NCBI GenBank assembly: GCA_963706715.1
Contig: CAVPNI010000001.1
Span: forward strand, 96,001-160,000
DNA: 64,000 nt
DNA from: an uncultured Verrucomicrobiae bacterium
GTDB lineage: Bacteria > Verrucomicrobiota > Verrucomicrobiia > Chthoniobacterales > Xiphinematobacteraceae
Direction of reading: 5' to 3'
The notes beneath the pieces are model-generated. The model did not search any database, was not told the DNA's origin, and was given only the letters and a program-made list of their open reading frames with translations. Below, piece by piece: positions 53,212-53,467 of the stretch (positions are counted from its first letter, which is position 1; each line of letters starts with the position of its first letter). Both the position numbers and the translations under genes were made by a program.

Positions 53212-53467
53212 TTTTTAGTTATCAGTAACTTGTAAGGTGTGCTCAGGCCAAAGCTGCCGGTCCGTTGACATATTGTAGACAAATCTACCCAGCGGGAAAC
53301 TTTGCGTTCTCCAAAAAATACGTGTGCAGCGGACCGGAGCCAATCTACGATGCGGGCTTTTTACGCTCCATAGAAACGCCGGCCATTTTACAGCTTGACC
53401 TGAGCAACCTTACCCTACTCAGTTAGTGGACTAAAATACGAGTCCTTTGGACTTGATGGCTACGAAC
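53212..53467. ncRNA. Candidate IS110 bridge/guide RNA region (transcribed strand unknown)
   Basis: Long stem gtaaggtgtgctcaggccaaagctg / cagcttgacctgagcaaccttac enclosing ccggtccg/cggaccgg and further hairpins. Confidence 0.65.

Follow-up and report, generated by a model that had tools for sequence, protein, structure and literature searches.

The stretch of DNA analysed here (the window: 64,000 nucleotides of an uncultured Verrucomicrobiae bacterium, positions 96,001 to 160,000 of contig CAVPNI010000001.1 in assembly GCA_963706715.1) carries an IS110-family element with a 435-aa recombinase and, upstream of the gene, a long non-coding end with two repeated, guide-like modules. This raises the question of whether the non-coding end encodes a bridge RNA and, if it does, which DNA each module would read. 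Bridge RNAs underlie a new class of programmable recombinases, and to our knowledge the mechanism has so far been based on few IS621-type elements.

The recombinase gene lies on the minus strand (51904..53211), and its 435-aa product, which combines a RuvC-like DEDD domain with a Tnp domain that bears the Ser, matches Pfam PF01548 (DEDD_Tnp_IS110) and PF02371 (Transposase_20) as well as the NCBIfam model NF033542, 'IS110 family RNA-guided transposase' (222 bits; cut-off, 140). With the single sequence, phmmer found nothing in the PDB within an E limit of 0.001; a profile of 24 family sequences was needed, and this matched the IS621 structure (8wt6) at E = 2.7e-17 and the ISCro4 structure at E = 6.6e-15. 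Within the family D15, E58, D95 and D98 are invariant and S329 nearly so, and these positions align with the catalytic residues of IS621 as named by Hiraizumi 2024 (PMC11208158). The subfamily is widespread: tblastn confirmed at least 605 of at least 618 candidate stretches in species-representative genomes, and a tblastn search of plasmids returned 406 records, with either 'IS110 family transposase' or no annotation among the 40 matches listed.

Both the fold and a covariance model predict a bridge RNA on the minus strand at 53232..53417, in which a closing stem, P0, surrounds a target loop and a donor loop. The original prediction had proposed a long closing stem, and this is borne out by the minimum free energy (MFE) fold, which pairs about 53391-53417 with about 53234-53256, and by the conservation of P0 in 77 loci, where it is kept despite sequence change (mean of -22.9 kcal/mol for a locus's own flanks vs -11.0 kcal/mol for flanks from different loci). 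The 259-nt left end folds with an MFE of -93.5 kcal/mol (z = -4.34), and none of 200 shuffled sequences was equally stable. For the comparison with relatives we used 80 loci with 36-65% protein identity from many phyla, and further loci from the same order. A regular-expression search for the modules missed diverged relatives and was replaced by a covariance model, R1, built from the closest 20 relatives, which share a clear twin-module pattern. R1 matches the window element at 53248-53396 (94.3 bits, E = 7.7e-22). Of 89 sources, again spanning 36-65% protein identity and many phyla, 88 have a match immediately before the recombinase gene; the single source lacking a match has only 117 nt upstream of its gene. 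When the alignment was fitted to the model, 95.6% of cells paired and 17 of 21 pairs showed compensatory changes, with slid controls reaching 32-47% and none of 500 shuffles attaining the observed value. An unfitted MAFFT alignment of the 20 gave 93.5% of cells paired and compensatory changes in 12 of 21 pairs. A permissive scan of 51000-56000 against Rfam 15 (E up to 1) found no matching family.

The RNA is thus divided, with support from covariation, into two internal loops, each built as stem, arm, hairpin, arm and stem. In minus-strand sequence, P1, the outer stem around the target loop, pairs GGCCG at 53380..53384 with UGGCU at 53338-53342 (96.4% paired, compensatory change in 4 of 5 pairs), and it encloses a 5' arm, GCGUUUCUA (53371..53379), an inner hairpin (53353..53370; closing UGG.GC / GCCCG, this second helix 99% paired) and a 3' arm, CAUCGUAG (53343..53352), which is module A. 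The outer stem of the donor loop (P3) pairs CCGGUCCG at 53330..53337 with CGGACCGG at 53257-53264, with compensatory change in all six pairs, and encloses a 5' arm, CUGCACACGUAUUUUU (53314..53329), an inner hairpin (53293..53313; closing UGG.GA / UCCCG, the fourth helix, 99.5% paired) and a 3' arm, CUGGGUAG (53283..53292), which is module B. The two modules therefore lie where they had been described, at 53282-53296 and 53342-53356, each beside its own hairpin; their RNA-sense (minus-strand) sequences are CCCGCUGGGUAGAUU and CCCGCAUCGUAGAUU, and each comes after its hairpin. Both 3' arms consist of six variable bases, an invariant AG and two further bases, with AG at positions 7-8 of both arms in every one of the aligned rows listed that cover both loops, and AG is found at both junctions as well.

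To know what these arms could read, the ends of the element have to be placed, and here the original prediction needed correcting. The element proper occupies 53459 to 51886 on the minus strand, with AG (plus-strand CT) on either side, a left end of 248 nt and a right end of 18 nt around the recombinase gene. Its true start is therefore 8 bp further in than had been claimed, and the segment 53460-53465, taken earlier for the other element end, belongs to a target half-site, GTTCGTAG (53460..53467, minus strand, core AG at 53460-53461), which is host DNA outside the element. GTTCGTAG directly precedes all 11 copies of the element in the genome, and in element orientation all 11 end in GTGGGTAG. 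The corrected boundaries are confirmed by an empty paralogue of the window insertion site at C1:421744, which reads ...GTTAGTAG TTGGTG GTTCGTAG TTCGCAgaggctccactg... (TTCGCA after the half-site) and holds no element sequence. The right flanks begin with TT in eight copies and with AA, AG and GG in one copy each, and because they vary in this way a GTT/AAC core is untenable; we rejected the AAC core of the original prediction on these three copies without TT after the right end and on the empty sites. The shared core is AG on the RNA-sense strand and CT on the plus strand.

Counted with its half-site and core, the first window copy spans 51884-53467. A tandem second copy (53474..54857, minus strand, coordinates taking in the flanking core and half-site) and a third copy (16442..17825, minus strand) carry a 200-bp deletion. 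As the paralogue at C1:421744 lacks an element, the tandem copies must occupy two adjacent half-sites 6 bp apart, and the 6-bp spacer at 53468-53473 is the gap separating these neighbouring half-sites. Among the 11 genome copies, five are full length, four have the identical 200-bp deletion and two are rearranged deletion copies, so that the deletion, equivalent to window positions 53162-53361, is present in 6 of 11. Lost with it are the part of the bridge RNA that begins at the target-loop hairpin and the initial codons of the recombinase, among them that for the first catalytic Asp; both ends, the left hairpin, the distal site (described below) and both inverted repeats are kept. The deletion copies occupy different genomic sites, and this form is a non-autonomous derivative that has spread. 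Because these copies have lost both RNA and recombinase start and have yet multiplied with both ends kept, we infer that the RNA and the enzyme act in trans. The two deletion copies with more internal loss are at C1:781271-782632 and C4:373050-375815, and in one of them about 1.6 kb of foreign DNA lies between element segments.

In the donor loop, the UGGGUAG of the 3' arm equals the right end of the element at 7 of 7 positions, just as had been claimed for CTACCCA at 51884-51890, making this arm the candidate guide for the right end plus AG, and the AU after CUGGGUAG is the handshake position of the donor arm. The right end (51884..51897, minus strand) comprises the AG core at 51884-51885, the terminal six bases GUGGGU at 51886-51891 and, at 51888-51897, the right copy of a subterminal inverted repeat, CAGTTAGTGG. 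Across the family, a locus's own donor-arm 7-mer is found perfectly just past the stop codon in 44 of 56 loci, vs 0.9% with non-self guides.

The 5' arms of both loops were matched, in both senses, against the left and right flanks, the right end and element bases 1-70, and two cases alone exceeded the non-self controls. The donor 5' arm gave an own mean run of 5.97 vs 4.70 for non-self arms against the left end in the same sense, and a faint signal was seen for the reverse-complemented target 5' arm against the right flank (3.96 against 3.54 non-self). The left terminal segment (53420..53459, minus strand) begins with CCAUC and includes a hairpin (53439-53455), kept in most of 68 relatives, the donor-arm site (53433-53440) and the left copy of the subterminal repeat (53420-53429). 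The donor 5' arm has the same sense as this site, with 10 of 11 bases identical in the window element. Family-wide, the common run of the donor 5' arm and the left end is at least six bases in 16 of 36 loci (vs 2.5% for unrelated arms) and at least eight in 6 of 36 (vs 0.1%), in a constant register. The site lies 22-30 bp inside the left end and stops about 3 nt before the left repeat, and the left-end hairpin lies between it and the terminus. The inverted repeats measure 10 bp in the window; a left copy with at most one mismatch of eight is present in 36 of 46 loci, with a left extension beyond the repeat of 30-37 bp and a right extension, core included, of 4-6 bp. As a canonical guide adjoining the core, the donor 5' arm gave no diagonal signal and no complementarity to the core-proximal left end. 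The original prediction had seen no second, reverse-complement guide in either loop; this holds for the second arm of the donor loop, which has none, and the target loop has a short one (below).

The distal match may not reflect pairing with DNA at all, and could instead be a relic of a duplication, a shared protein site or a feature of a precursor RNA, a reading that we take seriously without favouring it. Its polarity fits neither donor guide of IS621, a precursor transcribed from a junction would hold both copies in one RNA, and the hairpin and T-run of the window element resemble a terminator; against this, identity is kept at a constant register while the sequence itself varies (runs of at least eight, as above), a relic would be expected to decay, a protein site would be expected to vary less freely and the T-run is missing in most relatives. 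In a scan of 53150-53520 we found no sigma-70-like promoter in or across the left end and one terminator-like site, the left-end hairpin with its T-run. This site, a minus-strand hairpin at 53441-53453 followed by CGTATTTT (T-run to 53433), scores as intrinsic-terminator-like and could block read-through from the host flank; a T-run after the hairpin is absent in most relatives.

If the distal site is instead contacted by the RNA, the 3' and 5' arms of the donor loop would both pair with one DNA strand, the bottom strand of the element. Because both arms are complementary to that strand, we also considered that the donor loop binds a single-stranded, self-folded donor and not a duplex, which we regard as rather unlikely. 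On the bottom strand the subterminal repeats could pair and the terminal hairpin folds somewhat better, so that a DNA loop with a hairpin would mirror the RNA loop. The hairpin is the more stable in the bottom sense in 33 loci and in the top sense in 17, of 68, and G-T pairs number 44 on the bottom vs 23 on the top strand; in the test of G-T vs A-C asymmetry across the subterminal repeats unpaired positions dominate, and the test of wobble-type mismatches in the donor 5' arm had only six mismatches available. Contact of the donor loop with a distal site on the same strand bears on the question of a single-stranded vs a duplex donor. Two recent preprints have proposed single-strand circle and copy-out models for IS621 and CazIS110-1, and a single-stranded donor, if true, would give these models natural support at the sequence level. 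This mode of donor recognition, if true, would also be one unreported for bridge RNAs in the literature searched.

The target loop points to the host. The UCGUAG of its 3' arm, the candidate guide for the left target flank plus AG, equals the DNA before 11 of 11 copies, and the AU after CAUCGUAG is the handshake position of the target arm. The original prediction had matched CTACGA to a genomic heptamer repeat, which stands, and to three target flanks at four of six bases each, which does not, the contiguous six-base UCGUAG being present at all 11 sites. In the relatives we searched a 110-nt zone upstream. Of 70 loci, 47 have there, 40-140 nt before the RNA, a perfect copy of their own target-arm 7-mer, and 65 have a match at 6 or more of 7 positions (non-self guides, 0.7% and 11%). 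Covariation between the modules and the donor or target sequences, the check that the original prediction had called for, is therefore strongly positive in about 80 relatives, and its assignment of one module to an element end and the other to the genomic heptamer repeat is upheld by own-guide matches far above those of foreign guides.

GTTCGTAG occurs 203 times in the genome, vs about 93 expected, and 192 of these sites are unoccupied. It is part of a dispersed heptamer repeat with at least 62 tracts and the consensus GTTCGTA GTTGGTG GTTCGTA, one of which holds two unoccupied half-sites in the window at 27734..27755 (plus strand). The repeat is intergenic, and GTTCGTAG sites often adjoin conserved flanks, for example ...ctacagttgtca and gaagttgatagc.... 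All 11 insertion sites share eight bases and the contiguous guide match is only six; the repeat context alone may account for this.

These counts also bear on a reading in which both modules are donor guides, with module A reading the left terminus (TTCGTAGCC...) and module B the right, the target being read elsewhere or by the protein and the core being AAC/GTT. With the earlier boundaries UCGUAG would indeed be the first bases after GTT at all copies. We nevertheless consider this reading very improbable, given that 192 of the 203 genomic GTTCGTAG sites lack an element, that the empty paralogue carries GTTCGTAG with no element sequence after it, that the flank of one copy has a second, unoccupied GTTCGTAG followed by unrelated DNA, that the flanks of two-copy relatives diverge just 5' of the guide-matched bases and that a GTT core leaves inexplicable the three copies without TT after the right end.

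With module A thus taken as the target guide, the 5' arm of the target loop, GCGUUUCUA, may supply a weak second guide, reading the top strand of the core and bases 1-3 of the right flank. Its complementarity to right-flank positions 1-3 covaries across the family (z = 5.4, 2.8 and 2.3; these z-scores and those of the handshake bases are overstated, as related elements are not independent). This would be the short second guide of the target loop, three bases plus core. In the window element, the 5' arm fits AG+AAG or AG+AGG flanks, found at 2 of 11 copies, and not the AG+TT of 8 of 11; it predicts AG+AA(A/G), and sites with AA, 33 of the 192 unoccupied ones, are plentiful.

The two bases that follow AG in each 3' arm provide a further, family-level indication. 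In the target arm, bases 9-10 are identical to element bases 1-2 in 59% and 43% of loci (expected, 29% and 25%; z = 5.8 and 3.5) and show no such agreement with the right flank (z = -1.1 and 0.3). Base 9 of the donor arm coincides with the first right-flank base in 39% vs 21% (z = 3.3), and the first element base is under-represented there (7% vs 25%, z = -3.0); the boundaries of the relatives were placed by guide matches, making such per-position identities partly circular, which the own-versus-foreign guide test is not. At the family level these bases thus tend to follow the handshake rule established for IS621 (Hiraizumi 2024, PMC11208158), matching the non-cognate partner and avoiding the cognate one. 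In the window itself, the target handshake AU agrees with the element start CC at neither of two positions, and one of two bases agrees with the commonest right flank. We find it barely credible that the structure is a mere 5' leader through which the translation or stability of the recombinase mRNA is controlled, with no guide role. It does sit immediately 5' of the start codon without an intervening terminator, and in the MFE fold the two target-loop arms can pair with each other. These points are outweighed by loops whose sequence agrees with the right end past the stop codon and with the host flank, both of which differ from element to element, and by a handshake rule not expected of a leader.

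We therefore return to the guide RNA, and consider it very likely, from comparative sequence evidence, that the left end encodes a bridge RNA with which the 435-aa DEDD/Ser recombinase chooses its DNA partners by base pairing. The original prediction of a bridge-type RNA in an IS110-family element is upheld by the presence of R1 in 88 of 89 sources and by guide covariation. In the mechanism that we propose, the long closing stem would hold the two loops side by side, the target-loop 3' arm would read the left target flank plus core and the donor-loop 3' arm the right end of the element plus core. Recombination would then take place at the common AG/CT dinucleotide between a circular or tandem element junction and the target, as for IS621.

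Comparison with IS621 as described by Durrant 2024 (PMC11208160) and Hiraizumi 2024 (PMC11208158) reveals many shared features: an RNA encoded 5' of a DEDD/Ser recombinase gene, within the long left end, a variable target loop first and a more conserved donor loop second, loops ordered as stem, arm, hairpin, arm and stem, one core dinucleotide read by both loops (CT in IS621; here AG in RNA sense and CT opposite), a guide with AG as its last bases, after which come two handshake bases matching the non-cognate DNA, and a dispersed genomic repeat as target. The differences are equally systematic. In the account of Hiraizumi 2024 (PMC11208158), the 5' arm of IS621 carries the long bottom-strand guide and its 3' arm the short top-strand guide with the handshake; here this order is reversed, the long bottom-strand guide being on the 3' arm, and the polarity of the crossover relative to the gene is consequently inverted. 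Read on the other strand, the core is CT as in IS621, with gene and RNA facing the opposite way with respect to the crossover. The second target guide comprises here about three bases and the core, both loops are surrounded by a long closing stem, the subterminal repeats are 8-10 bp as opposed to 2-3 bp, their left copy lying 30-37 bp inside the end, and the protein has 435 aa as opposed to 326 and is too diverged for a single-sequence match. In the second loop, guides on opposite strands beside the core, typical of IS621, are replaced by one on the 3' arm only, and the donor 5' arm matches a distal site, in the same sense and on the same strand as the 3' arm.

The IS1111 group was defined by subterminal inverted repeats (7-17 bp) and a downstream non-coding region (Siddiquee 2024, PMC11187229). 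As described in that work, elements with an IS1111-type seekRNA, such as ISEc11, resemble ours in having subterminal inverted repeats, in an RNA where the complement of the top strand precedes that of the bottom strand, and probably in an RNA that can act in trans on target-flanked ends. Here, in contrast, the non-coding region is upstream of the gene in 88 of 89 sources, as opposed to downstream, the terminal extensions are 30-37 bp and 4-6 bp, as opposed to 7 bp and 3 bp, and the recombinase has 435 aa, as opposed to about 340 aa; rare exceptions with an upstream non-coding region, for example ISMtsp17, are mentioned there too (Siddiquee 2024, PMC11187229). The subfamily is thus one that mixes IS110- and IS1111-defining features: an RNA upstream, long subterminal repeats and an IS1111-like guide order. 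Movement of the RNA between element ends was proposed by Durrant 2024 (PMC11208160), and the subfamily may be an intermediate of the kind inferred in that account for such a relocation. A further likeness is to ISPpu10, an IS110 element with a 'sequence-structure dual match', which also inserts into one repeated intergenic sequence and for which a DNA stem-loop is described as aiding recognition (Na 2026, 10.64898/2026.03.19.712850), although in that preprint the stem-loop lies in the target and here the conserved hairpin lies in the left terminal segment of the donor.

Judged by its sequence, then, the locus represents a known mechanism, RNA-guided IS110 recombination, in an unusual and widespread variant. 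Our literature searches found no paper describing this architecture, which one of the 'diverse' consensus structures of Durrant 2024 might already show, and a term search of preprint 10.64898/2026.08.14.744561 yielded nothing on subfamilies, inverted repeats or core dinucleotides. The element offers a natural system in which most target specificity would reside in one 7-base guide and the handshake rule would hold, and one in which non-autonomous deletion copies appear to have been mobilised.

Several relatives carry insertions that touch on other elements or genes. At locus L056 the right end runs straight into the left end of a second copy, with a second RNA match at 2940-3092. The target guide there, GCGGAAAG, is similar to the donor guide of the same element, CUGGAAAG, so that this element may target its own end and build tandems. 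The left flank of two further relatives, L070 and L066, is the right end of an element of the L067 type (ATGTTGTCATTAGTAG) and is read by their target guides, so one element seems to have the end of a related one as its programmed target. Many of the Bacteroidota-type relatives (for example L067, L079, L092 and L114) insert into one kind of sequence, ...GTCATTGCGAG / CGAAGCGAGGA... (the slash marking the insertion point), which is probably a repeated extragenic element, and in these relatives GTC or GTTC precedes both the left flank of the target and the right end of the donor at equal distance from the core. Finally, in L122 and L125 the left flank contains GGTGGGAATCGAACCCAC, whose resemblance to the T-arm of a tRNA gene on the opposite strand suggests that a tRNA gene is the target.
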